Position numbers and translations under genes: made by a program
Notes under the pieces: model-generated
Told to the model about the DNA's origin: nothing
Seen by the model: the letters and a program-made list of their open reading frames with translations, nothing else
Databases searched by the model: none
NCBI GenBank assembly: GCA_965662895.1
Contig: CBFIJH010000003.1
Location: 133,793-178,185 of the forward strand
Origin: Candidatus Poseidoniaceae archaeon
Lineage (GTDB): Archaea > Thermoplasmatota > Poseidoniia > Poseidoniales > Poseidoniaceae
Length of the DNA: 44,393 bases
Reading direction: 5' to 3'
Shown here: positions 4,823-36,872 of the stretch, one piece after another
How the letters are laid out: each line of letters opens with the position of its first letter
How positions within the stretch are numbered: the stretch's first letter is position 1

Positions 4823-5308
4823 TCATTCGTTGATTTCGAGCTCTCTCATCAACATCTCAACGTGGCCTGTGGCTCGAACGTTGTAACGGCACCATTCGAT
4901 GACTCCATCCGAATTGATAACAAAGGTCGAACGGACGCAACCGAGGTATTCTCTGCCGTAGTTTTTCTTCATCCGCCATGTTCCGAACATCTCGTGAAGA
5001 TGTCCTTCTTCGTCCATCAATAGAGGGAAATTGAGTTCTTGTTTGGTGATGAAATTTTCATGAGATTTTTCCGAGTCCTTTGACACACCGAGAACCACGT
5101 ATTCTTCGTTTGCTAGAATTGCAAGATTATCTCTGAAGTCGCATGCTTGTTTGGTACAGCCAGGAGTTGAGTCTCGAGGGTAGAAGTACAAGATGACCTT
5201 CTTGCCATCTTTCATGTATGTTTCAAGATTATGGCTTTTTCCGGCTGAGTCGATGCATGAAAATACGGGGCTTTTCGATCCTACTTCAAGTGTTATTGGG
5301 GTGCTCAT
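4823..5308 (-). CDS. bcp: Peroxiredoxin (BCP/PrxQ)
   Basis: YFYPRDSTPGCTKQAC peroxidatic/resolving Cys motif, GVSKD, RSTFVI. Confidence 0.93.
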   Translation of the reverse strand: MSTPITLEVGSKSPVFSCIDSAGKSHNLETYMKDGKKVILYFYPRDSTPGCTKQACDFRDNLAILANEEYVVLGVSKDSEKSHENFITKQELNFPLLMDEEGHLHEMFGTWRMKKNYGREYLGCVRSTFVINSDGVIEWCRYNVRATGHVEMLMRELEINE

Positions 5309-5464
5309 GCATTGAGGGTATCGACTGACATTTTCAATGCTTGGTTGGGCTCTTGAGATGGAAGAAAATAGGAATATTTGTTATGCATAAAAAATGATGC
5401 GGCATGAATAAAACCATGTTTTTTGTCCAATTGTTTGATAAACTGCCAGTGCAGAACATTGCAT
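5309..5464. promoter_or_regulatory. AT-rich divergent promoter region between bcp and the archaellum-containing operon
   Basis: Strongly AT-rich gap; perfect palindrome TTATGCATAA at 5381-5390; TATA-like TTTGATAAA about 25-30 nt before ATG 5465. Confidence 0.5.
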
Positions 5465-5896
5465 ATGGCGGCTCCAAGCATGACGCGACGTAGCCGCAAA
5501 TACTTCAAGAAAATCCAGCGAGCAAAAACCCGTTACGACTTACAGACCATCGCTTCGACCATTCAAACCGAACTCGATCGACGGAACCTTTCGTACGATG
5601 AAGCGCTGAATCTTGGTAATTTTATCCAAAATAGGGCAGATCAGTTGCCAGGCGACTCCATTGTCTACGCTGTTTCCGATCGAGATGCATATCGCCGCAC
5701 GCTTGAGTTGTATCTTCGGGACGCATTACTGACACGAACGGAACAACTCCTGCTGTGGGAAGAGCGTCGAAGACTCGGCATTTCCGATGAGGAGCACGAC
5801 CGACTGCTCAACCAACTCCTTGAAATTTGGAAGTCTCAAGGAAAATCCGTAACCATTCAACGCTTTGAGAAAGCTGGAGGTAACGCAGATGTTTAG
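5465..5896 (+). CDS. Hypothetical helical protein with TerB-like C-terminal motif
   Basis: YRRTLELYLRDALLTRTEQLLLWEERRRLGISDEEHDRLL resembles the Y..AL.DG.IT..E..LL...R..LGIS.EEH motif; overlaps next gene by 8 nt. Confidence 0.7.
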   Translation: MAAPSMTRRSRKYFKKIQRAKTRYDLQTIASTIQTELDRRNLSYDEALNLGNFIQNRADQLPGDSIVYAVSDRDAYRRTLELYLRDALLTRTEQLLLWEERRRLGISDEEHDRLLNQLLEIWKSQGKSVTIQRFEKAGGNADV

Positions 5897-8800
5897 TCGC
5901 AGAGCCTTGCCTGTTCTATTGGTTATTTTGCTTGTTGGCCACCTTGCTTTGCCATTCGCTGATGCATCTTCGGCAAGCGGTCGTTCCGGGCCAGATTTCC
6001 AAGTGAACAAAGTGGTCTTTGACGGGGCGGGATCTGTATCCACAAGCAGCGGTTTGGTTCTCGCACCCGACACACACACAGTCCGCGTCGATGTATCGAA
6101 CGCTGGATCTTCTTCTGGAAATGCTTTCCTTTCCTTGGTTCACAAAGGGTCCCCGAATGCTGCAGAACAAACCGTCGACACCGTCGACCTCGGCGTGATG
6201 TCTGCCAATTCCGGGCCAACGACGTATTTGTTGAGTTGGACTGCAACAACCGGCCCTTCTCAAACACTTTTCGCCCGTGTGACCGGTGCAAACGACGGCA
6301 ACATTGCAAACAATGAGTATCGAAGAGATTTTGACGTCGAGCGATTGGTTGATTGGTCAATTACCACACCCGAAACCCTTCCAACCGTAACACCGGGTTC
6401 GACCAGCGCATTTTTGGAGCGCCAAACACACAAATTCAACGTCTCTGTTGTTAACGATGGCGTCATGCCGTTTTCGGCTCGAATGCAAATCGTGCTGACC
6501 AATGCCTCAAACCTTCCTCCAACGGTAAACATCGATTCCGAAATCAAAACCATCCACGCTCCCTCCACGTACGATACGGAAATTGGAAACGTCGAAGCCT
6601 TGCCTCTTAACGCGACTTTCGACGCTTCGACGATGACCGGATTGTGGAACATGTCCGTCCGAGTCATACTCGATGATGGCAGTGGTCCAGTTACAGACAT
6701 CTACAAAGAATTCGACGTAACCTTTAGCGATTACATCGCAGAATTGGTCGGGGCATCAAGCCGCACAACTTCGCCAGGCGACTCGACAACGTTGTTTTAC
6801 ACGGTCAAGAATACTGGTTCAACAACGGACAGCTTCACAATTGGCGTCAGTTCGACCGAAGGGTGGGCAGACACATCGCTCGATGGGACGTTTACGGATT
6901 TCCTCATTGCTGGCGCAACCACACTTGTACCCGTTCACGTGCATGTACCTCAAGGAACTTCATTGTCCGAGGTTGACATTATCTCGTTCTCGATTACTTC
7001 TGCCGGAAGTGGTTACACCCTGTCGAATACAACCCAAGTCATGGCAGGTGAGTATCTTGAAGCCACGGTTGACATCACAAATGACACCACATATGTTTTG
7101 CCAGGAAAGTCCGATACAATTGCTTTCAACATCACGAACACTGGGAATGCAAGGACCTCTTTTGACTTGGTTGCTGGATTTACATCGGATCCTATGAACT
7201 GGGTTCACAACATTTCCATCGATAATACTGGAGAATTGGCCGTGGGACAGTCTGTATCTGGCTTTATTCACGTTGAAGTGCCGCCGATTCAGTTGCCACT
7301 CGTTCCTGCTGAAGACAATGCTGCTGGCAGTAGCCTCAACGTCTACGTTACCGCAACTGCAGATACGGGGAGCATTCCAAGCACGGATTCGGGCCAGATC
7401 GAGGTCCGGCCGGCGATTGTTGTTGACCCCGGCCTTCCAGTTGATACAATTGTATTGAGTGAAAGCGATGTGCTCAATGCAGGATCGTCGATTGGCGTCA
7501 ACGAGATTCTCGCACTCAATGTGCAGGTCCGACACAACTTGGTTTCCGACCTTTCTGAAACGATTGATGCGAACATCACGGTTGGCGACATATCCTTTGA
7601 AGCACTCACTTCAGGTGGGTTCAATGAGGTTGATCGATGGAATGCAACTGTCACGCCAAATGAAATCACAGGTCTCACGCTAGGTGAATCCTTCCCGGCC
7701 TCGTTGGGTATTCAGAGCCGAATCGGTCAAATTCCACTTGCTGGAACAGTCAAAATCCCGGTAACAACAACCCCGACGCTCGGTGGAGTCCACACCGCCT
7801 CTTCTGTGTATGCTCCCACGATTGAACAAAATCTGTCCATCGTTGTGCCTCGCGTAATTAATGCAGAGATAGCCGAAACCGGTCCGCTGGATGCAAACGT
7901 TGGCGTCGATACAGATTTCATGTTTACGTTCGCAAACACCGGGAATGACCGTTCAGACTTCCGTTTGGAAATAGTCGAGAACTTACCCACTGGATGGTAT
8001 GCGAATTTGACGACCACAAGCCCAGACAACACCATCCTCAATCTTGCGAGTGACTTTGAGGACTATCCGGCTGACAGTGGTGTCCATCTCTCTCTTGTCA
8101 CACTGACCGTAAAGACCGATCCACTCGCACCTGCCCAGATGTTGCAACCCCTCACCATTCGCTACTACGACCTTGACACCGGCGCCTACATTGGTGAACA
8201 AACCATGGACATCCGCGTCGGTGAATCTGTCGCGGCGGAATTAACCCCGACAAATCAATCGATTGAAATCACGCCGTTTGAACAATTGTCTGCCTTTGTT
8301 AACATCGCAAATACCGGAAACGGACCAACTTCTTTCTCTATCGAGTTGGATGATGGTGGCTATGATGACGTATCGTTCGAACTTGATACCTCCTCCACAG
8401 TTGTCGTCGCTGCTGGCTACGAATCGTCGATTCGAGTGAACATCATTCCGACTGTGGATGCGAGTGCCGATGCGTTTTACATGGCCACGCTGACCGTCTC
8501 GATGGTCGATGAAAACGGAGATCTTGTCGAACTCAAAGCAAACATTGTTGCAAACATTTCAGAAGTTCACGACGTACAACTCACAGCACCGGACAGCCTC
8601 GTCGCAGTGCCGGGGACAATCGTCAATCTTCCGTTCACGCTCTTCAACACAGGAAATCTTGTTGAGACGGTCAACATCAACATCACGGTGGATGGCGGTT
8701 GGAGTACAACGCCCACAGTCCAGTCGTTCACAGTACCAATCGACGGCGAATCCACTGGTAGTTTCGATATCGCCATCCCTGCACTTGATGGCTCCGATAA

Positions 8801-10796
8801 TCTCCTTGATGGGTCCATTCATGAAGCCAATTTAACCGTCTATGATGCCTCAACGGATACGGTGTATGTGCTCAAGAAGGTTGAGCTTCTTGTCGCCCCA
8901 GTCTTTACCTATACGATTGATGGTTGGAAGGATGAATACTTCTTCCATGAGGGCGATAATCGAATCCTAACTGCCCAAATTACGAACACTGGAAACAAGG
9001 ACGTCTATGTCGACCTCGGTTACGAGGTTCGTGCTCCGGGTCTAACAATTCCAAGCGATGATTGGAGCGTTGACAGCGCATCACCCAGCCAGATTTTCCT
9101 TCCCAGAAACACGCCTGTTGAACTTGTCATTAGCGTTGACAAAAACCCTGGTGGAAGCAGCAGTACTACTCTTGCAACAGCAGCAGATTTACGCGTAACA
9201 TTGGTGCCAACGGATGTTGATGTTGACGGAAGCGGTGAATTGATGACATCGTTAAAGATGAAGCGTCTCTTTGACACCGGTTATGCCGACAAACTTCAGG
9301 CTCCAGCCAACGATGATCCTGTCACTGTGGCCATTGAGTACTCTCACATACCGTACCTCAACACTGCACCTGCAGCTTATTCAATCGAATTTTGTGGCAT
9401 TGAACGAATTCTCGACATCGACGGCCTAGGTCTGGACGAAGATGAATACATCTGGAACATTTCTCTGACCAACCTCGAAGGCGAAGAGAGTGTTCATTAC
9501 ATCAATCTCTCGGCACCATGCGTTCCGGGGAGTGAGCTTATTCAACTTCCCGAGCGGCCGGCTTACGTCCTGTCACCGAATCTCATCTTCAACGTAAAAG
9601 TTCCAGACCGACCCAATATTCTCCCGGGTGACGGTTACGACATCACAATGCTTCTTCACCATCCTGATCCGAACGAACCCGTCACTGAAGAAACATTCCG
9701 ATTTGCGTTGAATGTCTATGCCGATCCGATGATTGACCCGGATTCGCAACGGATTGTCGATGCGGATGGTGAAGAACTCGATCTCATCATGGAGGGCCAA
9801 ACATCCTACATCGAATTCGATCTCAAGAATGAAGGAACTGCTCTTGCAATCGGCATAGGTTCTCAACTCGTGTGCGAGGGTCTCGTGATTGAAGATGCCC
9901 CTGCATACCTACCCCTCCTCGCAGAAGGTGAAGTTCAAACACTGCGCTGGAAGATTACCGGTGAAACACTTGACTGGTGGGAACAGAGCAGAGATGCTGA
10001 TTGTACTGTCGAGATACTGTCCTCGTATGCCCTCAACAACGTCGTTGAAAACGACAAGATTCAGTTCAAACAGAAAGTGGATTCGAATTCTCCATCCACT
10101 CTCACTTCTTTTGCAGGATTCGGAATTGCATTGATTGTAACGATCGGTTTGCTTGGATTGACCAACCAGAATGAAAAATATCGACTCGGAGCGGTCTATT
10201 CTGGAGTCATCATGCTTGGATTCCTCTTCCATCTCTATGATGCAATATGGTGGGGTCCAGTTACCGTTGTGATTGCTGCGTTATGGGTCTGGCGAATGGC
10301 GTGGAGAAGCAGTGAGGAATTCCGTTACATCCACGAGGATTATCAACGAGCAAGGAAAGGAATATCCACGATTTATGCCGACCACTTCCAAGCATTGACC
10401 GATTCTCGTCGACAACTGACGATTATTCTCAGCCTGCCTCTGCTCGGATTCATTGGTGTCGTTTTGGGGCTGCCTCCGCAAATGACGCCAGATGAAACGA
10501 ATCTCATTACTTTGGTCGGTTACATTTTGTTCTCGACCGCCGTCGTTTGGGCCATTCTCCGCCGAGCCAACAACCAGTACGGTACGCTCTACGGCAAACT
10601 CACGGACATTGAGGTGAAGGCAACACGCATTGAACGTGACCTTGGCGACCCAGCTCGTCTTCTCAACGACCTTGCAATGGATGGACTTGACCTCTCTGCC
10701 ATCCTCGAACGACCTCAATCGACCATCAACAACGATGGTCAAACAAACACAGAATCTTCAGGGGAGGTGAATTCGAATGGCGAAGAGCAAGATTGA
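5889..10796 (+). CDS. Giant cell-surface protein (~1635 aa): signal peptide, CARDB-like domain, multiple NEW3/COG1470-type Ig repeats, about 5 C-terminal TM helices and a coiled-coil tail
   Basis: GGAGG SD then MFSRRALPVLLVILLVG; recurrent NTGN/NTGS/NEGT motif (7 times); hydrophobic segments after ~10100; acidic, Thr-rich composition. Confidence 0.85.
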   Translation: MFSRRALPVLLVILLVGHLALPFADASSASGRSGPDFQVNKVVFDGAGSVSTSSGLVLAPDTHTVRVDVSNAGSSSGNAFLSLVHKGSPNAAEQTVDTVDLGVMSANSGPTTYLLSWTATTGPSQTLFARVTGANDGNIANNEYRRDFDVERLVDWSITTPETLPTVTPGSTSAFLERQTHKFNVSVVNDGVMPFSARMQIVLTNASNLPPTVNIDSEIKTIHAPSTYDTEIGNVEALPLNATFDASTMTGLWNMSVRVILDDGSGPVTDIYKEFDVTFSDYIAELVGASSRTTSPGDSTTLFYTVKNTGSTTDSFTIGVSSTEGWADTSLDGTFTDFLIAGATTLVPVHVHVPQGTSLSEVDIISFSITSAGSGYTLSNTTQVMAGEYLEATVDITNDTTYVLPGKSDTIAFNITNTGNARTSFDLVAGFTSDPMNWVHNISIDNTGELAVGQSVSGFIHVEVPPIQLPLVPAEDNAAGSSLNVYVTATADTGSIPSTDSGQIEVRPAIVVDPGLPVDTIVLSESDVLNAGSSIGVNEILALNVQVRHNLVSDLSETIDANITVGDISFEALTSGGFNEVDRWNATVTPNEITGLTLGESFPASLGIQSRIGQIPLAGTVKIPVTTTPTLGGVHTASSVYAPTIEQNLSIVVPRVINAEIAETGPLDANVGVDTDFMFTFANTGNDRSDFRLEIVENLPTGWYANLTTTSPDNTILNLASDFEDYPADSGVHLSLVTLTVKTDPLAPAQMLQPLTIRYYDLDTGAYIGEQTMDIRVGESVAAELTPTNQSIEITPFEQLSAFVNIANTGNGPTSFSIELDDGGYDDVSFELDTSSTVVVAAGYESSIRVNIIPTVDASADAFYMATLTVSMVDENGDLVELKANIVANISEVHDVQLTAPDSLVAVPGTIVNLPFTLFNTGNLVETVNINITVDGGWSTTPTVQSFTVPIDGESTGSFDIAIPALDGSDNLLDGSIHEANLTVYDASTDTVYVLKKVELLVAPVFTYTIDGWKDEYFFHEGDNRILTAQITNTGNKDVYVDLGYEVRAPGLTIPSDDWSVDSASPSQIFLPRNTPVELVISVDKNPGGSSSTTLATAADLRVTLVPTDVDVDGSGELMTSLKMKRLFDTGYADKLQAPANDDPVTVAIEYSHIPYLNTAPAAYSIEFCGIERILDIDGLGLDEDEYIWNISLTNLEGEESVHYINLSAPCVPGSELIQLPERPAYVLSPNLIFNVKVPDRPNILPGDGYDITMLLHHPDPNEPVTEETFRFALNVYADPMIDPDSQRIVDADGEELDLIMEGQTSYIEFDLKNEGTALAIGIGSQLVCEGLVIEDAPAYLPLLAEGEVQTLRWKITGETLDWWEQSRDADCTVEILSSYALNNVVENDKIQFKQKVDSNSPSTLTSFAGFGIALIVTIGLLGLTNQNEKYRLGAVYSGVIMLGFLFHLYDAIWWGPVTVVIAALWVWRMAWRSSEEFRYIHEDYQRARKGISTIYADHFQALTDSRRQLTIILSLPLLGFIGVVLGLPPQMTPDETNLITLVGYILFSTAVVWAILRRANNQYGTLYGKLTDIEVKATRIERDLGDPARLLNDLAMDGLDLSAILERPQSTINNDGQTNTESSGEVNSNGEEQD

Positions 10797-11769
10797 AGAA
10801 GATGATTTCATCATGGATTCTGAGTTAGGTGATGGAGATCTTTCCGACGCACAGGCAGCAATCGCCGCCTCCAATGAGAGCGCCCAGCGCTTGATGCAAG
10901 CAAGTCGAGAATTGGAATCATTGGTTCAAAACGTTGTTAGTGACGAAGTCAATTCACTTGCGACAACCGAACTTGACCTTCTTCAAGCGAAGACCTTCCT
11001 CGAAACGCATCGCTTGCGTAGGGCACGAAAGAGCGTGCGTCGTGCAGAAAAAGCACTCAATGTTCTCGAAGAAGATGTTCTTTACCTGCGAAGGAGCATC
11101 GCAATGTTGCATCGTTTGTTGCGAGAAAAAGCCCTCGCTGAAGAAGAGGTTGAAAACGTTCTGCGCCGACTTCGAAATGCGACGGGTGCAGCTGAAATCG
11201 GCGATGTAGGCTATGCTGCAACCGAAGTCGAGTATCTTGTCGACGATCTCATTGGAGGGAACTCATCAACGCTCAACCCATTCCTTTTCCGCCACTTTTG
11301 GCTTTCAGTCGACACTCGATGGCCTGCAGGAGGAGAAACAGGTATTCTCCTTGTTCGAATTATCAACGATGGAGACATCCCACTTCCAATGATGCGTTTG
11401 GCTCCGCCTGTCCCTGACGGATGGGTTGCAAAGCCATCCTTCATTGATGTACCAGTTATCGGCCCAGGAGGAAATTTGCCGGTTCGATTTGAGATTCAAG
11501 CAGATCGTCGTCATGGTGCCGATGAAGTTCCTTTGTCACGAAAACTTTCAATTGCAACCGGGTACGAAATGAGGAATGGTAACGTGACTGTCACAATTCG
11601 TGCTCAAAACCGTTCGATGGAACCACTCGTCGATGTCCTCATTGAGCCTTGGATGCCACCTGGCTTCACTGCCGACAAGGTACCATTCATTAGCAGACTT
11701 ACACCCGACGAGGTAGCCATTATGCGTATGCCTCTTCGCATCGACTTGGGTCATGGAGGTGCTCCATGA
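10777..11769 (+). CDS. Hypothetical cytoplasmic protein: acidic N-terminus, coiled coil, two tandem Ig-like (NEW3-like) domains
   Basis: GGAGGTG SD; no signal peptide; VRIINDG...PPVPDGW...IGPGG...RFEI and IRAQNRS...PWMPPGF...LTPDE...RMPL repeat. Confidence 0.8.
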   Translation: MAKSKIEEDDFIMDSELGDGDLSDAQAAIAASNESAQRLMQASRELESLVQNVVSDEVNSLATTELDLLQAKTFLETHRLRRARKSVRRAEKALNVLEEDVLYLRRSIAMLHRLLREKALAEEEVENVLRRLRNATGAAEIGDVGYAATEVEYLVDDLIGGNSSTLNPFLFRHFWLSVDTRWPAGGETGILLVRIINDGDIPLPMMRLAPPVPDGWVAKPSFIDVPVIGPGGNLPVRFEIQADRRHGADEVPLSRKLSIATGYEMRNGNVTVTIRAQNRSMEPLVDVLIEPWMPPGFTADKVPFISRLTPDEVAIMRMPLRIDLGHGGAP

Positions 11770-11824
11770 CCCACATCCAATTCCACCCTCAGATGAGGGA
11801 GGACGAGTAAAAAAAGGTGAAAAA

Positions 11825-12469
11825 ATGAAAACCGAAAAAGAAACGAAGCAAGACGAACTTGCTGCGATTGGTATTGGTGCGATGATTGTCTTCATTGCAT
11901 TGATTCTGGTTGCGGCAGTAGCAGCTGCGGTCATTATTCAGACCGCTGAAAAGCTGCAACAGAACGCACAAGCCAGTGGTGACGATACCCAAGAGCAGAT
12001 GTCAACCAAGTTGACTTTGATCAATGTCGTTATTGAAACCCGTGACCTCGGCGGTGATGCTGCGATTGGCGGCGCTGGCGTAAACGCTGACACAGCAGAT
12101 TTGTTTGTCACGTTTGAACTTGCGCCTGGCTCTGAACCGACACAGGCTGATGACATAGGTTACACTGTCATCTGTGAAAACCTTGGTGAAGATGGTGCAG
12201 CTGGTGGAGCAGCAGCCGACGCTGACTTTACTGCATTTGCACAAGGTGATCTCTCAGGCGCAACCCTGCACACTGGCGACGGAGCTAACGCTGGTGCTGC
12301 GATTACACTCGATCCAGGAACGACCTACGTTGTTGTCCTTGAAATCGACGAATGCATCCCTACAGGAAACACAGACCACATTGCCATCTTCTCAGTCGAT
12401 GGTGGTGGTTCCACATACGAAGAACTCCAATATGGAAGCGCACCAACAGTTGGTGACGTAGTTGTTTGA
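11825..12469 (+). CDS. flaB: Archaellin (archaeal flagellin) 1
   Basis: AIGIGAMIVFIALILVAAVAAAVIIQT class III N-terminal helix, LAPGSEP motif; AGGTGA SD before ATG 11825. Confidence 0.95.
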   Translation: MKTEKETKQDELAAIGIGAMIVFIALILVAAVAAAVIIQTAEKLQQNAQASGDDTQEQMSTKLTLINVVIETRDLGGDAAIGGAGVNADTADLFVTFELAPGSEPTQADDIGYTVICENLGEDGAAGGAAADADFTAFAQGDLSGATLHTGDGANAGAAITLDPGTTYVVVLEIDECIPTGNTDHIAIFSVDGGGSTYEELQYGSAPTVGDVVV

Positions 12470-12479
12470 GGTGAAAAAA

Positions 12480-13139
12480 ATGAAGAATACACAAGAAAAG
12501 AAAATTGAAAACGACAACCTAGCTGCAATTGGTATCGGTGCGATGATTGTATTCATTGCTCTCATTCTCGTTGCTGCAGTAGCGGCTGCGGTCATCATTC
12601 AGACTGCAGAGAAGCTACAACAGAACGCACAATCCACAGGTGATGATACGACCGATGAGATGTCCGGAAAGATTCAGATTCTCAACGTATTTGTTGATGA
12701 ACCTGATAATTCATTCGTGATTTATTTCCGATTGGCTGCTGGTTCTGATGATACAGATGCCGGAGATATTCTTTGGCAAGTATTCTGTGAGGACCCAGAT
12801 GGTGGCGGTGCAGGACCTCCTGCAGTTCCAAGTACTGACCGACTCGCAGGGGAATTCGATGATACTGTAGGCCCCGGTGGCACGAGTATCATATTCTCGC
12901 TTGATGATGCCGGTGCAGTACCTGCTGCTGAAGCAACTGCTGAAGCGGGTATAGCCTACAGGGTTTCTCTCGATACGAACGATGAAAACAACGCCGTTGT
13001 TGGAACCAACAATTGTTCACCACAGCATCTGTTCGATGAGAACATCAAGGCATCTTTGTACGTCCACGTAGTTGGTGGCGGTACAACGTTTGACATTCTG
13101 AAAGTCAACGACGCTTCTCGTGGAGCAGTGGTGGTCTGA
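12480..13139 (+). CDS. flaB: Archaellin (archaeal flagellin) 2
   Basis: Identical 38-aa N-terminal helix, RLAAGSDD motif; GAGGTGA SD. Confidence 0.95.
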   Translation: MKNTQEKKIENDNLAAIGIGAMIVFIALILVAAVAAAVIIQTAEKLQQNAQSTGDDTTDEMSGKIQILNVFVDEPDNSFVIYFRLAAGSDDTDAGDILWQVFCEDPDGGGAGPPAVPSTDRLAGEFDDTVGPGGTSIIFSLDDAGAVPAAEATAEAGIAYRVSLDTNDENNAVVGTNNCSPQHLFDENIKASLYVHVVGGGTTFDILKVNDASRGAVVV

Positions 13140-13144
13140 GTCTG

Positions 13145-13182
13145 CCTGTGCGATGACTTGCCTCATGCAAGTCAAGCACAGG
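13145..13182 (+). promoter_or_regulatory. Intergenic stem-loop after the archaellins, overlapping the next RBS
   Basis: CCTGTGC-GA-TGACTTGC-[CTCAT]-GCAAGTCA-A-GCACAGG; 3' arm includes the first AGG of AGGAGG. Confidence 0.7.
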
Positions 13183-13192
13183 AGGTTGTACC

Positions 13193-14038
13193 ATGGCATG
13201 GCCATTTGGCAGTGCAGGGAACGACCGGGACGCAGACGCTGAACTCGCAGAAGAGCGCTTGAAGATTATGGCCAATGTGGCCATTGAACAAGTGCCACTC
13301 CCTGAACAAGGGGAGTTGAGTGAAGAGGATGCATGGACCATCTCCCCCGGTCCGACTCGAGCACGATTGAACAGCATTGGATCGGTACCATCCGTTGCAG
13401 CGACGCTTGCCCCCCAACCGGCGGCACCCGTCAATGCACAGGTGGATACATCTGGTCTGGAACGTATGATTAGCAGCCGTCTCGACATGGTCGAAGATGT
13501 GCTGGGTCTAATCTCGCACAAGATGGAGCAAACGAACCTTGCATCTGCACCAGAGGATGGAGAATCCTCCGAAGCAGGTGAAGAAGGCGAAGATGCCTCG
13601 ATTGATGCAGCAGAAGGCGACACGATTGTTACCGCCGATGGAGAAGTTCTCCCAGTCGGTGGTGGCGTAGATCGTTTGCGACAATCCGACGAAGCACGAC
13701 TTGTTGAATTGTATGAAGCACAGGCTCTTGCAGCGAATCCTTTCCTAGCAAAGGGTTCCTATGAGCATGCTGCGAACGATGGCGTAGGTGCGGCGATGGT
13801 TGCTGCATTGTTGCTGGATAACCTCTCTGGTATGGCGGCTGTGAGCTTTGCTCAGAAAGCCGTACAAAGTGGAATGCTGACCGAAGATGAAGGACGTGCC
13901 GTCCTTGCTATCGTTCAGTTGGCCGCTCCAGGTGAGGCAGAATCTGCACTGAACGACCATCTGTCGCATCGCAAGTTGCTGACTTTTTCAGCGATTGTTG
14001 AATCTTGGCGGTCACAGACATCGAAGTCGGAGGAATGA
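13193..14038 (+). CDS. Archaellum-associated protein, probable divergent FlaD/E (ArlCDE-like)
   Basis: Position between flaB and flaF; low-complexity acidic linker; C-terminal LLDNLSG..AVSFAQKAVQSGMLTEDEGRAVL...LSHRKLLTF loosely matches the FlaD/E domain pattern. Confidence 0.55.
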   Translation: MAWPFGSAGNDRDADAELAEERLKIMANVAIEQVPLPEQGELSEEDAWTISPGPTRARLNSIGSVPSVAATLAPQPAAPVNAQVDTSGLERMISSRLDMVEDVLGLISHKMEQTNLASAPEDGESSEAGEEGEDASIDAAEGDTIVTADGEVLPVGGGVDRLRQSDEARLVELYEAQALAANPFLAKGSYEHAANDGVGAAMVAALLLDNLSGMAAVSFAQKAVQSGMLTEDEGRAVLAIVQLAAPGEAESALNDHLSHRKLLTFSAIVESWRSQTSKSEE

Positions 14039-14041
14039 TGC

Positions 14042-14701
14042 ATGGGCGCTTCAGTAGGTGTTGGTGCTCTCGTGGTTGGTACCTCGTTGTTGTTGGTGTT
14101 TGCACTTGCTGTGCAAACGCTTGACGCACGATTGGATGCCAGTCTTGAGGCCATCGATGATGCTGGAGATCCTATGCCGTCGTTCCAAATTGATGACGCA
14201 ACCCTTTGGGAAGGTGCTGTACTCAGCATCAACATTGATACCAATGGAAGCGGTTATGTGAACGGCACATTGGTTGCATCAGGAACCGGTAGTGGATTTT
14301 CTGGAACGTTTACGGTCGACACAGCAGGAGGAATAGAAAGCGTGACAATCACCAGTCGCGGCAATTACTCGTCCCCTCCGACTATCACCGTCGACCCGTC
14401 CGGACAATCTGGAATCACCGGAACTGCATTGTTGAGTTCCGATATTGGAAACCATATCTATGGCAACCTGACCAATACTGGGACCGTTACATTACCCCTT
14501 CGACAGGGTTGGCTCTTCCTCGACGGAGGAACGTCACAGACACCGACGAATCTAGGAACAGCATACACACCAAGCATCAACAGTACAAACTGGTACCCAG
14601 GAGAAACGATTTTTCTTGACTGGTCTGAAGATGGACCTTCATCGTACGAACGGATCTCATTGACCGCAGGTGGGCTTACAGTGGCCCACGTTCTAGCATG
14701 A
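14042..14701 (+). CDS. flaF: Archaellum protein FlaF (ArlF) with internal insertion
   Basis: MGASV..ALVVG N-terminal TM, LTNTG, FLDG, WYPGETI motifs; synteny. Confidence 0.75.
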   Translation: MGASVGVGALVVGTSLLLVFALAVQTLDARLDASLEAIDDAGDPMPSFQIDDATLWEGAVLSINIDTNGSGYVNGTLVASGTGSGFSGTFTVDTAGGIESVTITSRGNYSSPPTITVDPSGQSGITGTALLSSDIGNHIYGNLTNTGTVTLPLRQGWLFLDGGTSQTPTNLGTAYTPSINSTNWYPGETIFLDWSEDGPSSYERISLTAGGLTVAHVLA

Positions 14702-14710
14702 GGTGATCAA

Positions 14711-15199
14711 ATGGCAGACGGTGGAGCATCATCATTCATTTTCCTGACAACAGCCTTGCTGGTTTCAGGATTGGTGAGCGTTGTCCTCATTAACCAATGG
14801 GGAGAGATGGCTCAAATAACTGCACAGGAAACTGCAGCACTAGAGGTGCAAGAAGCGACCGGTGTGGGTTTTGCAGGCGATCCGATGATGGTCGATTTGA
14901 ATACGACATCGAATGAAATTACCTTCTTCCTTCAAAACACTGGGACGACGTTGTTGGATTCTTCCACGCTTGTTGTTCTCATTGATGGACAAACGATGGC
15001 CTCGTCGATCAATTCATCCCTCGTACCCGCAACAGGGGATTGGGACGAAGACCACCTTCTCGAGGTGACTGTACATAGCACCACTTGGACCTATCAATCA
15101 GGCGATGACATCGCACTTACTGCGATCGTCTCGTCCGCAGTGACCAATGGATACCGTGGCTCGGATTCAACATCTTTGGAGGTGCGTTTGCATGGTTGA
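14711..15199 (+). CDS. flaG: Archaellum protein FlaG (ArlG)
   Basis: MADGGASSFIFLTTALLVSG N-terminal TM, GDP, FFLQNTG, VLIDG motifs; synteny. Confidence 0.8.
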   Translation: MADGGASSFIFLTTALLVSGLVSVVLINQWGEMAQITAQETAALEVQEATGVGFAGDPMMVDLNTTSNEITFFLQNTGTTLLDSSTLVVLIDGQTMASSINSSLVPATGDWDEDHLLEVTVHSTTWTYQSGDDIALTAIVSSAVTNGYRGSDSTSLEVRLHG

Positions 15200-15917
15200 G
15201 CGGCTCTCTGAAATGCCAAAACCGGTTGAAGACGGGTTCCCGTACGATGTTGAGACGGACAGCCTGGCCGATTCGCTCGGGCTGCGCCTGCCCAATCGAA
15301 GTTTGATTATGCTTCAGGGCGAAGTAGGTTCAGGTAAGTCATTGGTAAGTCAACGCTTCGTTCATGGACTTCTCCACAACGATGTCAAAGTTCTCGTTAT
15401 TACAACAGAACTGACCACTCGGGGTTGGATTGAACAAATGGAATCGATTGGTTATGGTGTCACAAGTGCTTTGACAAAAGGAAATCTCATGGTTTTCTCC
15501 CGCTTTGGAACCGTTGCTGAACCGATTCCAAACGTTGGCCTTGATGAAGTCCTGAGCAGTGAAGCCATCGAAGAGGCAGACATCGTCGTCATTGATTCTG
15601 CGAGTTCTTTGATGCCGGATGGTATGGATGATCAAGCACGGTTCGATATGATTCAACGCCTAAGGAAGATAGCGTCAACAGGTCGAAGTTTGATGCTGAT
15701 GGTTGACCGAGATGAAATGGATGCGAAACTCCTTCACTCTCTCCGTGCTAGCGCAGAAGTGGTTCTCGATCTCTCAACCAACCTCATTGGTGGAGACCTC
15801 AAACGTACGCTTCTTGTTACTCGTTACCTGCGTGCAGCAGGGCCTGTTCAATCTTCCATCGGTTGGCGTGTTGAACCAGGTATGGGCTTCATCGTCGACA
15901 TTACTGCAGTATCCTGA
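15192..15917 (+). CDS. flaH: Archaellum RecA/KaiC-like ATP-binding protein FlaH
   Basis: Walker A GEVGSGKS, VITTE, VVIDS, WRVEPGMG; synteny. Confidence 0.9.
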   Translation: MVERLSEMPKPVEDGFPYDVETDSLADSLGLRLPNRSLIMLQGEVGSGKSLVSQRFVHGLLHNDVKVLVITTELTTRGWIEQMESIGYGVTSALTKGNLMVFSRFGTVAEPIPNVGLDEVLSSEAIEEADIVVIDSASSLMPDGMDDQARFDMIQRLRKIASTGRSLMLMVDRDEMDAKLLHSLRASAEVVLDLSTNLIGGDLKRTLLVTRYLRAAGPVQSSIGWRVEPGMGFIVDITAVS

Positions 15918-15923
15918 GGTGAA

Positions 15924-17645
15924 ATGATGGTCGATGAAGAACTCAAATTTCAACGTGGTGACCTCGCTGGTGTTATGGCGGCCCACAGTCACGTCGCTGA
16001 CTGGGTTCGTGATTTTGAGAAGCGTTATGGCTCTCGTCCAATCTACTACGGACCTCTTGACCGAGGCGCCAAAAAGCAACGTCCACTCAATTTGATTTAC
16101 ATCACGAAAGAACCGGTATTCGTTCACATCTACGAGCCTCCAAGCGATGAGGAGGGTGGTGGGCAAGTTCTCTGGTTCGGATTGGAACCACAACTGAATG
16201 AGGAAGAAGAGAACATTCGACGTGATCTCGTGGAAACGCTTCTCCAAGAAGCACCAACAGCTCCTTCATTTACAACAGATTCAGAGTTTGAAACCATTCT
16301 CGGTCAAATGATTGACCGTTATACCATTTCAGAAACGGAGGCGAGTGTTGTCTCACGTCGTCGTGGCCGTCTGTGGGAACTTGTCGGACTTGACGACAAA
16401 CGCATCGTTGTATCGGACATGCAGCGTGAGCGGCTTCGTTACATCGTCATCCGTGATTTGATTCGTAATGGGCCACTTGAAACCCTTCTTTCAGATGAAA
16501 TGCTGGAAGATATTCACTCCGTTGGTCTGAAACACATCCACATGGATCACAAGGTCTTTGGAATGGTGACATCAAACATACGCTTCAGAGAGCGAGAAAT
16601 TCTCTCACGATACCTTCGCGCCATGTCCGAACGCATTGGTCGTCCTGTCTCTGACAACAAACCGATTATCGATGGCGCACTTCTCGACGGTTCACGTATC
16701 AACATCATTTTCTCAGATGACGTCTCGATGCTTGGTCCATCCTTCACAATCCGTAAGTTCGCAGAAGAAACCATTTCCGTTATTCAACTTATCAAATGGG
16801 GCACAATGAGTGCCCAGCAAGCAGCCTACATCTGGATTTGTTTGGAGTATGGTATGTCTGTCCTCGTTTCGGGAGAAACAGCATCGGGTAAGACAACAAC
16901 ACTGAATGCAATTCTTCCGTTTATTGACCACAACGTCAAAATCTATTCGGCTGAAGATACACCGGAAGTGAAGGTTCGTCACAAGATATGGCAACGTCTC
17001 GTCACCCGTGACTCAAAGAACGAGGACTCCCGTGTTGAGATGTTCGATCTTCTCAAAGCAGCTCTTCGTTCTCGTCCGCGCTACATCATTATTGGTGAGA
17101 TTCGTGGTGTTGAAGGTGCTACTGCCTTCCAAGCCATGCAAACAGGACACCCAGTTATCGCAACATTCCACGCATCATCGATTGTGAAAATGATTCAACG
17201 TTTTACTGGAGATCCAATCAATGTTCCAATTCGTTTCTTCGACAACCTGAACTTTGCGATTTTCCAAGAAGTCGTTGAGGCTCCAGGAGGAGGAATCGCT
17301 CGACGTATTACCGGTATTGACGAGGTCATTGGATACAACAAGCACAGCGATGGTGTCCTGACAAGAGGAATGTTTGAATGGGATCCAGTCAAAGACAAAC
17401 ACTACTTCCGTGGTATGTTCCAATCGCATCTGCTCGAGAACAAGATTGCAGCGATGGCAGGATTTGCAAACAAGCGAGACATTTACGACGAAATGCTACG
17501 TAGAGCGGCTGCAATTGAACGAATGGCTGATCGTGACCTTACGCATTACGATGACGTATTCGATCTTCTGAACATTTACTACAACAGTGGTTGGGAACAT
17601 TTTGATAGCGCCATCGATTCATGGGTTGGGGTCAACCACAACTGA
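15924..17645 (+). CDS. flaI: Archaellum motor ATPase FlaI
   Basis: DGSRINI, SFTIRKF, GETASGKTT, AEDTPE, LRSRPRYIIIGEIRG, QTGH..ATFHA. Confidence 0.96.
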   Translation: MMVDEELKFQRGDLAGVMAAHSHVADWVRDFEKRYGSRPIYYGPLDRGAKKQRPLNLIYITKEPVFVHIYEPPSDEEGGGQVLWFGLEPQLNEEEENIRRDLVETLLQEAPTAPSFTTDSEFETILGQMIDRYTISETEASVVSRRRGRLWELVGLDDKRIVVSDMQRERLRYIVIRDLIRNGPLETLLSDEMLEDIHSVGLKHIHMDHKVFGMVTSNIRFREREILSRYLRAMSERIGRPVSDNKPIIDGALLDGSRINIIFSDDVSMLGPSFTIRKFAEETISVIQLIKWGTMSAQQAAYIWICLEYGMSVLVSGETASGKTTTLNAILPFIDHNVKIYSAEDTPEVKVRHKIWQRLVTRDSKNEDSRVEMFDLLKAALRSRPRYIIIGEIRGVEGATAFQAMQTGHPVIATFHASSIVKMIQRFTGDPINVPIRFFDNLNFAIFQEVVEAPGGGIARRITGIDEVIGYNKHSDGVLTRGMFEWDPVKDKHYFRGMFQSHLLENKIAAMAGFANKRDIYDEMLRRAAAIERMADRDLTHYDDVFDLLNIYYNSGWEHFDSAIDSWVGVNHN

Positions 17646-17659
17646 GGAGGCGATGAAGG

Positions 17660-19462
17660 TTGGAACGAATGCCGATGTGGCAAATTGCCATCCGTCGGCT
17701 TGAAATGCCGATCGGCCGCTTTATTGCCATTTATGTTGGAGGCGCATTTGCAGCAGGCCTGCTCGCATCACTGTTGCTTATTTTTCTCACCGGGGGTTTT
17801 GCAGAAGGGGCACTGTTTTCTGGTCTTTCGGGAATCCTCCTTCTGTTTCTCCTTCCGATACTCGCTGCCGGTGGGGCAATGGCCTTCCCTTTGCTCGAAG
17901 TGAGCCGTTCTGCCAACCTTATCGAACGAGAAATGCACATGTTCATCACAAGAATGGGCATTCTTTCCTTAGGTGAGGTAGGAGCACAGACAATTTTCGA
18001 TATTCTCAAGCAGATGCGTGATTACGGTGAACTTGCTTCTGAAGTCCAACGGATTGAAACGCTTGTAGACAAATGGCACACATCACTTCCAGAGGCAGCG
18101 CGAATTGTGGCGCAGCAAAGTCCAAGCCCATTATGGACCGATTTTCTTGATCGAATGGCGTTTTCCATCGAAGCAGGGCAGCCAATTGACGAATTCATGC
18201 GTTCGGAACAGGAGACCGTTGCAGAGCAGTACAACACACTCTACGATACCCGACTTGAGAGTGTTGATACGATGCAAGAGATCTATGTTTCGATGGTCAC
18301 TGCTGGACTTTTTGGGCTTGTCATTGCGGGTATCCATCTCGTCCTTTTTGAGGTTGGAGGCGAAAATGATACACCGATTGAAGTTGCCTCACGATTACGA
18401 TTCCTGTTGTTAGCATCCATGCTCTTCCTGATTATCCAGGTCGCTGCGATGATGGCCTTTCGTGCGACGATACCTCGCGACCTTATTTTCGCTCGAGACG
18501 AGTTGGATACGCCGTTTCGAATCAATTTTAGACGTTCCATCCTCTCAGCAGGGGCCGTCTCGTTGATTCTACTACTGATTACTCTATTCGTGGTTCTATC
18601 AACTTGGGAAGAAATAAGCTCACAATGGGACCGCTACGGCCTTATTTTGCTCGCTGCACCGCTTTCACCGATGCTCATTCCAGCCTGGCTGATCGGCCGA
18701 GAAGAAAGCAATGTTCAACGGCGTGATGGAGCCTATCCTGACTTCATACGTGCACTTGGTGGTACGGCACAAGCTCGAAGTGCTGAACCATCGGCAACCA
18801 TCAAAGCATTACGGGGGGTTGATTTTGGTATGCTCGATGCATCAATCGATCGATTGGAACGTCGTCTTGCAACCCGAATTGATTCTGACCGAGCGTGGGA
18901 TTACTTCAATGCGGACACAAATTCTGCGGTCATATCTCGTTACACTCGGATTTACATCGAAGGTTCACAATCTTCAGGTAAACCCGCTGCAACTGCGGAG
19001 ATGGTTTCCCGTTCGGTTGGAAACCTTCTCTCACTCCGACGACGTCGAGCGCTTTCTGCCAATACCATGTGGGGCGTATCTTTGGGACTCCTTGTTGCCA
19101 GTGTCACGTCTCTAAACGTCACAATTTCGATTGTTTTGCAACTTGGTGAAGCAATCGCTGGTGTTGCTACAGGTTTGGCATCGACCGATGTAGGAGCACT
19201 CCAAGATTTTGGAAGTGGAATTGCGTTGCCAGTCATGGAAGATGCTTCATCGGTTGAAGACAACATTCGGATGTTCAAAATTATCGTATCAATTCTCATC
19301 ATTGGACAAATCATAGCAGTTTCTGCAATTGCTACACGACTTCGGGGTGGAGGAAAAACAAGTGCTGCAGGTCAAGCAATTCAACTGCTTTGGATTGCTG
19401 GTATCACTTCATGGATTACTGCCGTTCTCCTCGAAGGAGCCTCTTCCTTCTTCGGAGTTTAG
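17660..19462 (+). CDS. flaJ: Archaellum membrane platform protein FlaJ
   Basis: Polytopic GspF/TadC-like; YGELASEV, SPSPLWTDFLDRMAFSIEAG, YPDFIRALG; TTG start with GGAGG SD (ATG 17669 alternative). Confidence 0.92.
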   Translation: MERMPMWQIAIRRLEMPIGRFIAIYVGGAFAAGLLASLLLIFLTGGFAEGALFSGLSGILLLFLLPILAAGGAMAFPLLEVSRSANLIEREMHMFITRMGILSLGEVGAQTIFDILKQMRDYGELASEVQRIETLVDKWHTSLPEAARIVAQQSPSPLWTDFLDRMAFSIEAGQPIDEFMRSEQETVAEQYNTLYDTRLESVDTMQEIYVSMVTAGLFGLVIAGIHLVLFEVGGENDTPIEVASRLRFLLLASMLFLIIQVAAMMAFRATIPRDLIFARDELDTPFRINFRRSILSAGAVSLILLLITLFVVLSTWEEISSQWDRYGLILLAAPLSPMLIPAWLIGREESNVQRRDGAYPDFIRALGGTAQARSAEPSATIKALRGVDFGMLDASIDRLERRLATRIDSDRAWDYFNADTNSAVISRYTRIYIEGSQSSGKPAATAEMVSRSVGNLLSLRRRRALSANTMWGVSLGLLVASVTSLNVTISIVLQLGEAIAGVATGLASTDVGALQDFGSGIALPVMEDASSVEDNIRMFKIIVSILIIGQIIAVSAIATRLRGGGKTSAAGQAIQLLWIAGITSWITAVLLEGASSFFGV

Positions 19463-19498
19463 AAAAAGAGTATATGCTAGGTTGAGATTCACTGAGCC

Positions 19499-19942
19499 AT
19501 GCAAGCTCCTGTAAAGCAAGTCAATCCGCCCGCAACAAACATGTATCATCCGCCTCAACAGGCGATGATGGGTGGAGGATTGTTCTCGCTGCACAAATTT
19601 CTGATGATTGGCGTCATTCTGATTCTCATTGCAGTCTTGGTAAGCGTACTTCCAGACTTCTCCGGGCCTCCAGCATCGGTCGATTATACATCCGATCTCG
19701 AAGATCGAACACAAAAGATTGCAGAAGATACAGAATCGCACAACGATTTCGTCCGAATAATGGACACTTTGGCAACAATTATTGCAACGACAGGTGTTGG
19801 TCTGATTGCCTATGCCTTCGTTCGAGAAGCCTACGATGAAGATACAACAACGCCTGGGCTGCGAATCACACTGTTGATTCTCGGTACACTCATGCTTTTG
19901 CAAATTCTAGGTTCGGGAGTGAACTTTACGGCATCACTTTGA
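19499..19942 (+). CDS. Small hypothetical membrane protein (3 predicted TM segments)
   Basis: Hydrophobic segments; 36 nt after flaJ on the same strand. Confidence 0.7.
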   Translation: MQAPVKQVNPPATNMYHPPQQAMMGGGLFSLHKFLMIGVILILIAVLVSVLPDFSGPPASVDYTSDLEDRTQKIAEDTESHNDFVRIMDTLATIIATTGVGLIAYAFVREAYDEDTTTPGLRITLLILGTLMLLQILGSGVNFTASL

Positions 19943-20605
19943 TTTCTTTTTTCGGTTCATTTTCGCTTCTTCTGCAATCCGTTTCTTCGTTGCAGCCCAC
20001 GAACACATCGGGCATTGGGACAAGTCGTGATATCGAGCGGGACAATACTCCCGTCCAAAGAAGATGATTTGCAAGTGAAGGTCATTCCACGCTTCTTTCG
20101 GAAAAACCGCTTTGAGGTCTTTCTCAGTTTGTCCCACATTCTTTCCATTGGAAAGACCCCAACGGGCTGCGAGTCGATGGATGTGTGTGTCGATCGGAAA
20201 AGCCGGTATTCCGAAGGCTTGTGCAAGAACAACTCCAGCAGTTTTGTGACCAACCCCTGGAAGTGCTTCCAATTCTTCGAATGTACTCGGAATCTCACCT
20301 TGATGACGTTCAAGAAGGAGTTCTGACAATCGCTTAATGTTCTTGGCTTTTGTCGGAGCAAGACCTACTTCTCGAATCAGTGATTGGATTTGAGAGACTT
20401 CCAAGCCAGCCATCATTTCCGGATTTGGACCCTGTTTGAACAACTCGGGGGTGACCTGATTGACTTTCAAATCAGTCGTCTGTGCGCTCATCAATACTGC
20501 GATCAACAATTGGAATGGCGTGTCATGGTCGAGCGGCACAGGCGTTTCAGGATACAATTCTTCGAGCATGGTCTGAATGCGCTCAGCTTTCTCTTTGCGC
20601 CTCAT
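19934..20605 (-). CDS. nth: Endonuclease III
   Basis: LLIAVLMSAQTTD, HhH LPGVGHKTA, IDTH, C-x6-C-x2-C cluster motif (last Cys absent); start set at ATG 20605. Confidence 0.95.
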   Translation of the reverse strand: MRRKEKAERIQTMLEELYPETPVPLDHDTPFQLLIAVLMSAQTTDLKVNQVTPELFKQGPNPEMMAGLEVSQIQSLIREVGLAPTKAKNIKRLSELLLERHQGEIPSTFEELEALPGVGHKTAGVVLAQAFGIPAFPIDTHIHRLAARWGLSNGKNVGQTEKDLKAVFPKEAWNDLHLQIIFFGREYCPARYHDLSQCPMCSWAATKKRIAEEAKMNRKKKSK

Positions 20606-20613
20606 CGCCTCAC

Positions 20614-20820
20614 CTATTCTGCATATTCTGAGCCAGTGACCCAACCAAAGAACAAACCAGAGAAGATACTTGCGAGAGGTATTGCGTTGCACACAAGGAC
20701 TTCAACGATTGGTGACTCACCGTCTTGAGGTTGCCCTACCGCAATCCACAGAAGTAGACCCAGGAAGAGACCGGGAATGACCATGAGTGCGCCCATGATG
20801 AGGGTGCGTGTTAGTCGCAT
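20614..20820 (-). CDS. Small 2-TM membrane protein
   Basis: MRLTRTLIMGALMVIPGLFLG...; AGGTGA SD; fills the gap between polX and nth. Confidence 0.7.
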   Translation of the reverse strand: MRLTRTLIMGALMVIPGLFLGLLLWIAVGQPQDGESPIVEVLVCNAIPLASIFSGLFFGWVTGSEYAE

Positions 20821-36746: not shown

Positions 36747-36810
36747 ATTTGAGTAAAATCCAACGCAGTGTACTCTTTTCGTACAACATTAAATCCCATT
36801 ATTATTCGCA

Positions 36811-36865: not shown

Positions 36866-36872
36866 ATATGAC

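Follow-up and report, generated by a model that had tools for sequence, protein, structure and literature searches.

Two linked genes at the head of the Poseidoniales archaellum operon as candidate accessory parts of the archaellum

Introduction

In archaella, a stator made of ArlF and ArlG braces the motor against the S-layer, and how these proteins brace without an S-layer is treated as an open question in the Thermoplasmatales in the accessible text of PMC12448462. For the Methanococcales, S-layer-like proteins with multiple immunoglobulin-like (Ig) domains (arCOG05057) are described in archaellum loci, with a similar protein in the Thermococcales, and were proposed to let the filament cross the wall (PMC13705601, PLoS Genet 2026, main text); the Poseidoniales have no occurrence in the main text of that paper. 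Here we describe the archaellum (arl) operon of a Candidatus Poseidoniaceae archaeon (assembly GCA_965662895.1, contig CBFIJH010000003.1), which occupies positions 5465-19942 of a stretch of 44,393 nucleotides (nt), called the window below, to which all coordinates refer. It is headed by three genes, named g1, g2 and g3. Two of them, g2 and g3, are tied to the archaellum in a second class of Thermoplasmatota as well and may contribute a membrane-spanning part of it.

Among the planktonic archaea of the surface ocean, those of Marine Group II (MGII) are the most abundant. It is debated whether their archaellum serves to swim or to stick (PMC6461757 versus PMC6336850, both in their accessible text). 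According to the former, the operon is present in every MGIIa genus and in about half of those of MGIIb. In the latter, Tully 2019 mentions a "putative MGII motility operon" with "several orthologous proteins lacking annotations" that are syntenic with FlaGHIJ and flagellins; these are most likely the genes treated here, and the accessible text of that paper gives no analysis, domain architecture, co-occurrence count or relatives outside MGII for them. The terms archaell-, motil-, flagell- and S-layer do not occur in the EX4484-6 paper (PMC12220078), and a search of the literature on the Poseidoniales archaellum, supplements not covered, yielded no paper on these genes. The arl operon itself and the unannotated genes in it were known before; beyond the account of Tully 2019, we add the domain architecture, the genome-wide co-occurrence and the spread of g2-g3 to another class.

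Co-occurrence and gene order in the Poseidoniales

The g2 gene (5889-10796, + strand) encodes 1635 amino acids (aa) and is followed, with an overlap of 20 nt, by g3 (10777-11769, + strand; 330 aa); g1 (5465-5896, + strand; 143 aa) precedes them and overlaps g2 by 8 nt. Families were assigned with Pfam and NCBIfam profiles, and no family was found above cut-off for any of the three, in line with the earlier note on this DNA, which had set them apart from the canonical fla/arl genes.

Matches were counted in 251 genomes of the order, a single fixed draw in which each genome is at least 80% complete and on which all four queries were run. ArlJ had matches in 166 of these genomes, g2 in 169, g3 in 162 and g1 in 159, the last number including weak matches that cover a shared motif only. 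In 165 genomes g2 and ArlJ are both present and in 81 both are missing, which leaves one genome with ArlJ only and four with g2 only; the corresponding numbers for g3 and ArlJ are 159 with both, 82 with neither, seven with ArlJ only and three with g3 only. Most of the discordant genomes are fragmented assemblies or show the match at the end of a contig. For example, one of the g2-only genomes has a weak match, and in the others the match lies at a contig end or in an assembly of 250-260 contigs. By genus, the presence patterns of the module and of ArlJ coincide: the nine genera without ArlJ (75 genomes) contain one weak g2 match (9.8e-6) and one weak g3 match (8.5e-5). Orthologues that are common in genomes lacking fla genes, or unlinked to these genes, had been named in the earlier note as the observation that would speak against a dedicated module, and the two weak matches are all that the ArlJ-less genera offered, so that this check did not count against the module. 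The pattern by genus also agrees with the published distribution of the operon over MGIIa and MGIIb (PMC6461757, accessible text). The g2-g3 pair is inherited with the arl genes and lost with them.

The order g2-g3-arlB-(281-aa gene)-arlF-arlG-arlH-arlI-arlJ was found in eight of nine fetched loci, which represent three families, the ninth locus ending at a contig edge. The pair is single-copy and lies immediately 5' of the archaellin gene, and the 281-aa gene is present in all seven fetched loci that extend to its position. Judging by the source names, our family f1 corresponds to the Poseidoniaceae, and f3 is probably the Thalassarchaeaceae. In each of the 18 loci that were read, g2 and g3 overlap or are at most 6 nt apart when the longest open reading frame (ORF) is used to place the starts. 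The survey of gene neighbourhoods ties the module to the archaellum operon by co-occurrence and synteny, and extends g2-g3 to another class; we consider the tie of g2-g3 to the archaellum strongly supported.

Occurrence in a second class of Thermoplasmatota

Outside the order, the g3 profile had weak partial matches in 17 of the 301 genomes drawn from the phylum; ArlJ is present in 171 genomes of the same draw. The matching gene, of 330-570 aa, lies between a giant gene of 1282-1675 aa and arlB. In these giants CARDB is matched above cut-off just before the membrane helices, and the C-terminus has multiple helices. Downstream, the operons continue with arlB, arlC/D/E, arlF/G, arlH, arlI and arlJ, the gene after arlB encoding a true ArlC/D/E (FlaC_arch and Arch_fla_DE above cut-off). 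The g3 families of the two classes are homologous (hhalign probability 98.3%, E 1.2e-14, 257 columns over the helical and both beta domains). A homologous g2-g3 pair precedes arlB in at least four families of this other class, which is new here. The contigs of one of them, f18, are labelled as Thermoplasmatota or 'Thermoplasmatales' metagenome-assembled genomes (MAGs), one as EX4484-6, and all named protein matches come from Thermoplasmatota or Thermoplasmata MAGs.

We define the g2-g3 module by a g3-type protein, with a helical domain and two Ig-like domains, whose gene directly follows that of a giant CARDB protein with multiple C-terminal helices and directly precedes arlB. This arrangement is present in the window, in eight of the nine loci of the order and in nine loci of f18, f35, f10 and f20. 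With all loci combined, the pair stands directly before arlB in 5/5 loci of f18, 2/2 of f35, 1/1 of f10 and in one locus of f20. Among 20 arl loci of 15 further families, which were chosen by their ArlJ match and scanned with local profiles, four have the pair (f18, f35, f10). In genome G280 of f20 the cluster is split (L028, L035): the contig with the g2-like and g3-like genes and arlB also carries a 357-aa gene and two large ArlF/G-like genes (642 and 715 aa), and an ArlG-like gene with arlH-I-J is on a second one. That the linkage of the pair to arlB and stator-like genes persists in this split cluster counts for a role in the archaellum.

In a tree of ArlI with 34 rows, all 16 module-bearing rows fall within one clade of 20 rows (support 94/90). 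The module label requires two changes on this tree, and none of 500 shuffles gave a number as low; f20 was counted as module-bearing though its pair is on another contig, kin share labels, and the tree is unrooted. The pattern is compatible with a single origin of the module, followed by loss or divergence. As divergent forms of g2/g3 we considered the large ORFs that lie upstream of arlB in f30 (901 aa) and in f7 (1211 and 498 aa), and rejected them (hhalign probability 0.1-0.3%).

Two observations stand apart from this. In L048, L049 and L052 (f15, f26) there are two tandem arlI genes per locus, and the ArlI tree places them in two clades that are sisters. A lone g3-like gene of 354 aa, comprising the Ig-like part only (local hidden Markov model (HMM), E 1.8e-20), was found in L032 (G318, f24), on a 5.9-kb contig with no adjoining giant or arl genes.

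Architecture of g2 and g3 and their predicted complex

The g2 protein begins with a signal-peptide-like segment (residues 1-29), followed by a predicted multi-Ig/CARDB ectodomain, a membrane domain of five helices and an acidic tail. Strong hydrophobic segments at 1403-1426, 1508-1531 and 1538-1558, together with two weaker ones, place the membrane domain at about 1403-1558; it would include a cytoplasmic loop (1476-1507) and is followed by a C-terminal helix and the acidic tail of 75 aa. The tail is probably cytoplasmic, because the ectodomain lies outside and the number of helices is odd. A model of residues 1290-1635 (predicted local distance difference test (pLDDT) 84.6, predicted template modelling score (pTM) 0.72) contains a beta-sandwich, five membrane-length helices and a long C-terminal helix.

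In the ectodomain, an N-x-G-N motif recurs every ~110-130 residues in the alignment of g2 (A7). The g2 protein of the window has Ig-like Pfam matches slightly below threshold (NEW3, 23.8 bits against 24.4; FixG_C, 24.2 against 25.6), and relatives match CARDB above cut-off with 54.2, 42.9 and 39.9 bits. From the spacing of the motif and the sub-threshold NEW3, FixG_C and Ig matches we infer about a dozen Ig/CARDB/NEW3-like domains. The last modelled beta domain aligns to macroglobulin and CARDB domains (Z 9.1-11.3, root-mean-square deviation (rmsd) 2.0-2.7 A, 95-102 residues), for example to the CARDB domain 3idu with Z 9.1 and an rmsd of 2.3 A over 95 residues, and to macroglobulin domains with Z 10.6-11.0. 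By the profile matches of its relatives and its modelled fold, the ectodomain is assigned to the Ig-like domains of the CARDB/NEW3/macroglobulin type. The Ig-like matches, the repeated motif and the five modelled helices bear out the earlier description of g2 as a multi-Ig ectodomain with about five transmembrane segments. No S-layer family was matched by g2 in Pfam or NCBIfam at E<=0.01.

Within the order, g2 homologues are full-length and collinear at 21-42% identity. The membrane domain has no residue that is invariant across the two classes, the invariant columns of the joint alignment A8 all lying in the beta domain. As a fold, the membrane domain had its best similarity to designed helical proteins (Z 8.8), which is not above the chance level for helical bundles and was therefore discarded, and the ESM Atlas gave no usable match for residues 1395-1635. 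In public annotations of Candidatus Poseidoniaceae or Poseidoniales MAGs, the proteins of the module are called hypothetical, 'NEW3 domain-containing' or 'uncharacterized membrane protein'.

For g3, a hydrophobicity scan found no hydrophobic segment, and the protein is probably cytoplasmic. It has an acidic N-terminus, and its model (pLDDT 78.4) is helical over residues 21-159, a helical/coiled-coil domain, with two Ig-like beta-sandwiches over 174-322, so that the earlier characterisation as a cytoplasmic coiled-coil and tandem-Ig protein stands. Weak NEW3 matches occur at the same position in four members. No specific fold could be assigned, the structural matches being generic tandem Ig-like ones (transglutaminase C-terminal barrels, PapD-like chaperones, MSP/ASH domains). 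The family is small: of the clusters formed at 50% identity from 1.84 billion proteins, only 56 belong to it.

Complex prediction for g2 residues 1395-1635 with g3 gave a score of 0.40 (runs 0.40, 0.42 and 0.37), compared with 0.02 for the best of three controls; the runs share at least 47% of contacts, and the partner pLDDT is at least 65. Of 80 solved complexes, 58 reach the pass mark, as do 2 of 110 mismatched pairs; these counts are rough, as custom alignments were used. At scores up to 0.60, only seven of the 80 solved complexes do so, and both passing mismatches fall in this range. For an interface between the g2 tail and g3, which the earlier note had put forward for modelling, the support is weak: it amounts to a small rise in the odds for a pairing that was likely beforehand.

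A short motif ending in N-P-F-(L/I) lies just after the coiled coil in g3 (11263-11286), in the 281-aa protein (13718-13747) and in ArlC/D/E of the other class (L037, L038, L046, L053). The likeness extends over 8-29 aligned columns with probabilities of 1-23%, and the motif may be a common docking motif. Between g3 and true ArlC/D/E (hhalign, A1 versus A5), 8 columns align with a probability of 23%, and similarity at the level of families was not found.

The first gene, g1

The g1 gene encodes a helical protein, probably cytoplasmic, whose N-terminus is basic and which contains a conserved helical motif; a hydrophobicity scan found no hydrophobic segment. It is the best conserved of the three leading proteins, with 46-75% identity within the order. 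Its short helical motif is shared with two unrelated proteins of the same genome that have no further similarity to it. In f1, f2 and the f3 genera g9 and g23, strong matches are found immediately before g2, and in genus g11 the gene is ~3.2 kb upstream of it (seen in L014). Searches of genera g10 (0/21) and g25 (0/9) gave no g1, though g2, g3 and ArlJ are present there, and none of 26 loci of other classes has a g1 HMM match; unlike g2-g3, g1 was found in the Poseidoniales only.

The label 'TerB-like' that the earlier note had attached to g1 was not confirmed: none of eight family members matches Pfam TerB (PF05099) at E<=5, and the sole hint comes from ESM-Atlas clusters with TerB/ENT (lead score 0.83). 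Similarity to solved structures was not found either (best E 0.044 over 37 residues).

The remaining operon and its transcription signals

According to the ORF listing of the window, twelve co-oriented + strand genes span 5465-19942, with junctions of -8, -20, 55, 10, 53, 3, 9, -8, 6, 14 and 36 nt, exactly as described earlier. On the opposite strand the operon is flanked by an AhpC/TSA gene (4823-5308) and a HhH-GPD (Nth-like) gene (19934-20692). Nine of the twelve genes are arl genes or are located within the arl block, all on the + strand. The archaellin genes arlB1 (11825-12469) and arlB2 (12480-13139) match PF01917 above cut-off (E 3.6e-21 and 4.1e-21). They are followed by the 281-aa gene (13193-14038) and by genes for an ArlF-like protein (14042-14701; NF052590, E 3.6e-5, below cut-off) with an N-terminal hydrophobic segment (1-29), and for a putative ArlG (14711-15199; NF052591, 6.2e-12, below cut-off; PF01917, 4.8e-7) with an N-terminal hydrophobic helix. 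The KaiC-like ATP-binding protein ArlH (15192-15917; NF052589, E 1.6e-51) and the platform protein ArlJ (17660-19462; NF004704, E 6.1e-116) match strongly, though below the NCBI equivalog cut-offs, and the motor/assembly ATPase ArlI (15924-17645) matches NF058587 at 3.4e-200 with 666 bits against a cut-off of 550.

The 281-aa protein, presumably cytoplasmic, occupies the position of ArlC/D/E and is conserved throughout the order. No family was found for it above cut-off, and ArlC/D/E domains (FlaC_arch, Arch_fla_DE) are not matched at E<=1; one relative matches FlaC_arch at 0.014. Comparison of its family with true ArlC/D/E of the other class (hhalign) gave a match to a motif of 29 columns only (probability 3.2%, E 0.014). 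That g2-g3 replace ArlC/D/E was considered and ruled out, the pair coexisting with bona fide ArlC/D/E in the other class. The last gene, directly after arlJ (19499-19942), encodes a membrane protein of 147 aa with three hydrophobic segments and no family above cut-off, and overlaps the end of the convergent nth-like gene. A homologue was found only in L019, a close relative, among seven fetched loci extending past arlJ, and its membership in the archaellum system is uncertain.

Peptidase_A24 had no match in this genome and none above the Pfam cut-off in 41 genomes of the order that are at least 90% complete; the positive control detected it in 12 of 14 known genomes. The archaellin-processing peptidase of the order seems to be very divergent.

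Upstream of g1, a putative promoter motif lies at 5425-5449 (+ strand), with a TATA-like heptamer (5437-5443) ~25 nt before the ATG at 5465, and this placement suggests a leaderless mRNA. A similar motif at the same distance recurs in five of eight upstream regions compared (the window, L019, L017, L018, L011). A scan for sigma-70 sites and terminators was set aside as not applicable to archaea; its sites were no more numerous than in shuffled sequence. Within the spacer of 55 nt that precedes arlB1 there is no AT-rich, TATA-like box, as stated in the earlier note. This spacer contains an RNA hairpin (11782-11803, + strand), followed by an A-rich leader and GGTGA, a predicted ribosome-binding site, before the ATG of arlB1. 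This hairpin is the minimum-energy fold in all 11 Poseidoniaceae spacers, the stem sequences differing, with modest single z-scores (-0.3 to -4.2). When the spacers were aligned with MAFFT, RNAalifold retained just three pairs; the hairpin rests on single folds. It could serve processing or stabilisation of the archaellin message, or be a protein-binding site. In f2 and f3 the g3-arlB spacer is longer (61-234 nt) and often AT-rich, and an internal promoter is quite possible there.

One RNA library (X1; contigs only; 5% of words) contains part of the window, covering 11734-12826 and 13122-13200 only. Two of its contigs, from 11734 or 11748 to 11848, bridge the g3 stop codon and reach 24 nt into arlB1. 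Such contigs show no starts, the library may contain DNA, and missing cover of g1-g3 is uninformative; the contigs cannot decide between read-through, an internal start and processing at the g3-arlB1 junction.

Elsewhere in the window (32244-40037), an ABC ATPase gene is followed by a gene for a 1500-aa permease of the FtsX/MacB type with a very large extracytoplasmic part and by a 1089-aa ORF without Pfam match.

Possible role of the module

We propose that g2 and g3 are dedicated archaellum accessory parts in one lineage of Thermoplasmatota archaella, joined by g1 in the Poseidoniales. Since their stop and start codons overlap or abut, g2 and g3 would be produced in fixed proportion. The cytoplasmic loop and tail of g2 would hold g3 in one membrane-spanning complex, a structural scaffold that would be placed at the archaellum base. 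With its ectodomain, g2 could build a collar or local patch of wall that lets the filament pass and gives the ArlF/G stator something to brace against, and g3 could tie this patch to the cytoplasmic ArlH/I/J motor. We judge the odds to be about even that g2 and g3 make up an archaellum accessory complex that spans the membrane and most likely serves as a structural collar or anchor at the base, the least certain step being the exact role as anchor, collar or positioning device.

Several results weigh against this proposal. In 16 of the 20 loci picked by ArlJ, and in 12 of their 15 families, the pair was not detected beside arl genes (f6, f7, f9, f15, f22, f24, f26, f27, f29, f30, f34, f41); among these loci L039 (f9) is too short to tell, and f20 has the pair elsewhere in the genome. 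The families without a detected pair include the S-layer-less, Thermoplasma-like f34. Since many archaellated Thermoplasmatota have no detectable module, it is not a general solution to anchoring, and even within the module-bearing clade of the ArlI tree four rows lack it (f7, f22, f24, f30). Conservation along g2 is flat, with a mean pairwise identity of 0.24-0.30 per 100 residues, and no strongly conserved contact surface stands out. For a pairing that had not been likely from the start, a pass of this kind in the complex prediction is wrong in more cases than it is right. Finally, linkage alone would also fit a co-regulated surface protein.

The last point leads to the reading of g2 as a giant surface adhesin for attachment to particles or algae, with g3 as its cytoplasmic anchor or chaperone, co-expressed with the archaellum but working beside the filament and not as part of the machine. 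An ectodomain of the CARDB/NEW3/Ig type is typical of surface and adhesion proteins, shared regulation would also give linkage and co-loss, and Rinke et al. argue in the accessible text of PMC6461757 that the MGII operon serves adhesion, as chemotaxis genes are missing; neither CheF nor CheW was detected in the present genome (92% complete). Adhesins, however, usually vary in repeat number, whereas g2 is nearly fixed in the number of its domains and in length (1398-1670 aa in the order, collinear over 1-1595 at 21-32% identity). A polytopic anchor of five helices with a translationally coupled cytoplasmic partner would be unusual for an adhesin, and the pair is kept at arlB across two classes and in the split locus, so that we regard an adhesin as a real but minor possibility. 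The missing CheF and CheW, together with the divergent protein at the ArlC/D/E position, leave the usual signal input unrecognisable, and the module might stand in for it as a sensor or clutch: the g2 ectodomain would sense contact or a ligand and signal through the membrane domain to g3, which would start, stop or brake ArlH/I/J. As a cytoplasmic protein with a helical domain and protein-binding Ig-like domains, g3 would suit this task, as would the motif that it has in common with the 281-aa protein and true ArlC/D/E. But the few columns and low probabilities of this motif, the lack of any kinase, receiver, HAMP or PAS domain in g2/g3 by Pfam and NCBIfam, and the presence of the module alongside a full ArlC/D/E in the other class, where it does not replace that input, make a sensor unlikely.

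The linkage of the pair is tightest to arlB, and the archaellin-processing enzyme of the order was not recognised, which together might point to a factor that aids export, processing, glycosylation or polymerisation of archaellins without being a lasting part of the machine. Weak A24-like matches in frames of 334-369 aa elsewhere in four of the 41 genomes (L079-L081) and the lack of an enzyme family matched by g2/g3 count against this reading. The membrane domain without residues invariant across the classes speaks against an enzyme, and an ectodomain of ~1370 aa is hard to explain for a chaperone; we take such a factor to be quite improbable. That the three genes are unrelated neighbours hitch-hiking with the arl operon draws on the RNA contigs, which cannot demonstrate a single transcript. 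It is hardly compatible with the near one-to-one co-occurrence in 251 genomes, a gene order kept across two classes, overlapping reading frames and co-clustering on the ArlI tree, and appears very improbable.

A bolder form of our proposal of a membrane-spanning archaellum complex, which we offer as tentative and rather less than probable, is that g2-g3 are an unrecognised trans-envelope part of the motor across a clade of Thermoplasmatota, comprising Marine Group II, EX4484-6-like and related sediment lineages. Here g2 would form a ring or collar of multi-Ig ectodomains that acts as a private wall for ArlF/G to brace against, its five-helix domain being bolted to a layer of g3 that positions ArlH/I/J. 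If this were true, these archaea would supply their own stator anchor, possibly a counterpart of the polar-cap or anchoring structures that tomography has revealed in other archaea. In any case, two or three conserved genes at the operon head are an obvious place to look for the function of the MGII archaellum, and a membrane-spanning pair that has been passed on together with the motor in two classes offers a concrete candidate, open to test, for what holds the motor still in the envelope. The wider distribution provides more organisms for such tests and a family definition to search with.

Comparison with known systems

In its core genes and their order (archaellins, putative ArlF/G, ArlH, ArlI, ArlJ), the operon is the same as the euryarchaeal operon of the arl1 type, arlB-arlC/D/E-arlF-arlG-arlH-arlI-arlJ. 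It differs from the latter by the three extra genes at its head and by a protein at the ArlC/D/E position that is not recognisable as ArlC/D/E; the search of the genome for CheF and CheW also gave no chemotaxis genes. Like ArlX of the Thermoproteota and ArlC/D/E of the Euryarchaeota, which form a cytoplasmic coiled-coil scaffold or switch around ArlH/I/J, g3 is an operon-encoded cytoplasmic protein of the coiled-coil type, and it shares the short motif after the coiled coil with ArlC/D/E. Unlike ArlC/D/E, g3 carries two Ig-like domains, and the operons of the other class encode it in addition to true ArlC/D/E.

As a proposed brace or partner in anchoring on the envelope side, g2 would address the functional task that the ArlF/ArlG stator also serves. 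Unlike these two proteins, g2 is not archaellin-like and has a signal sequence of the Sec type, not of class III, and putative ArlF and ArlG proteins are encoded here in addition. The arCOG05057-type proteins resemble g2 as large secreted multi-Ig proteins in an archaellum locus with a proposed role where the filament crosses the envelope (PMC13705601, main text). In this comparison, which is one by description only, the five-helix membrane domain and the coupled cytoplasmic partner are features of g2 that the main text does not mention for arCOG05057.

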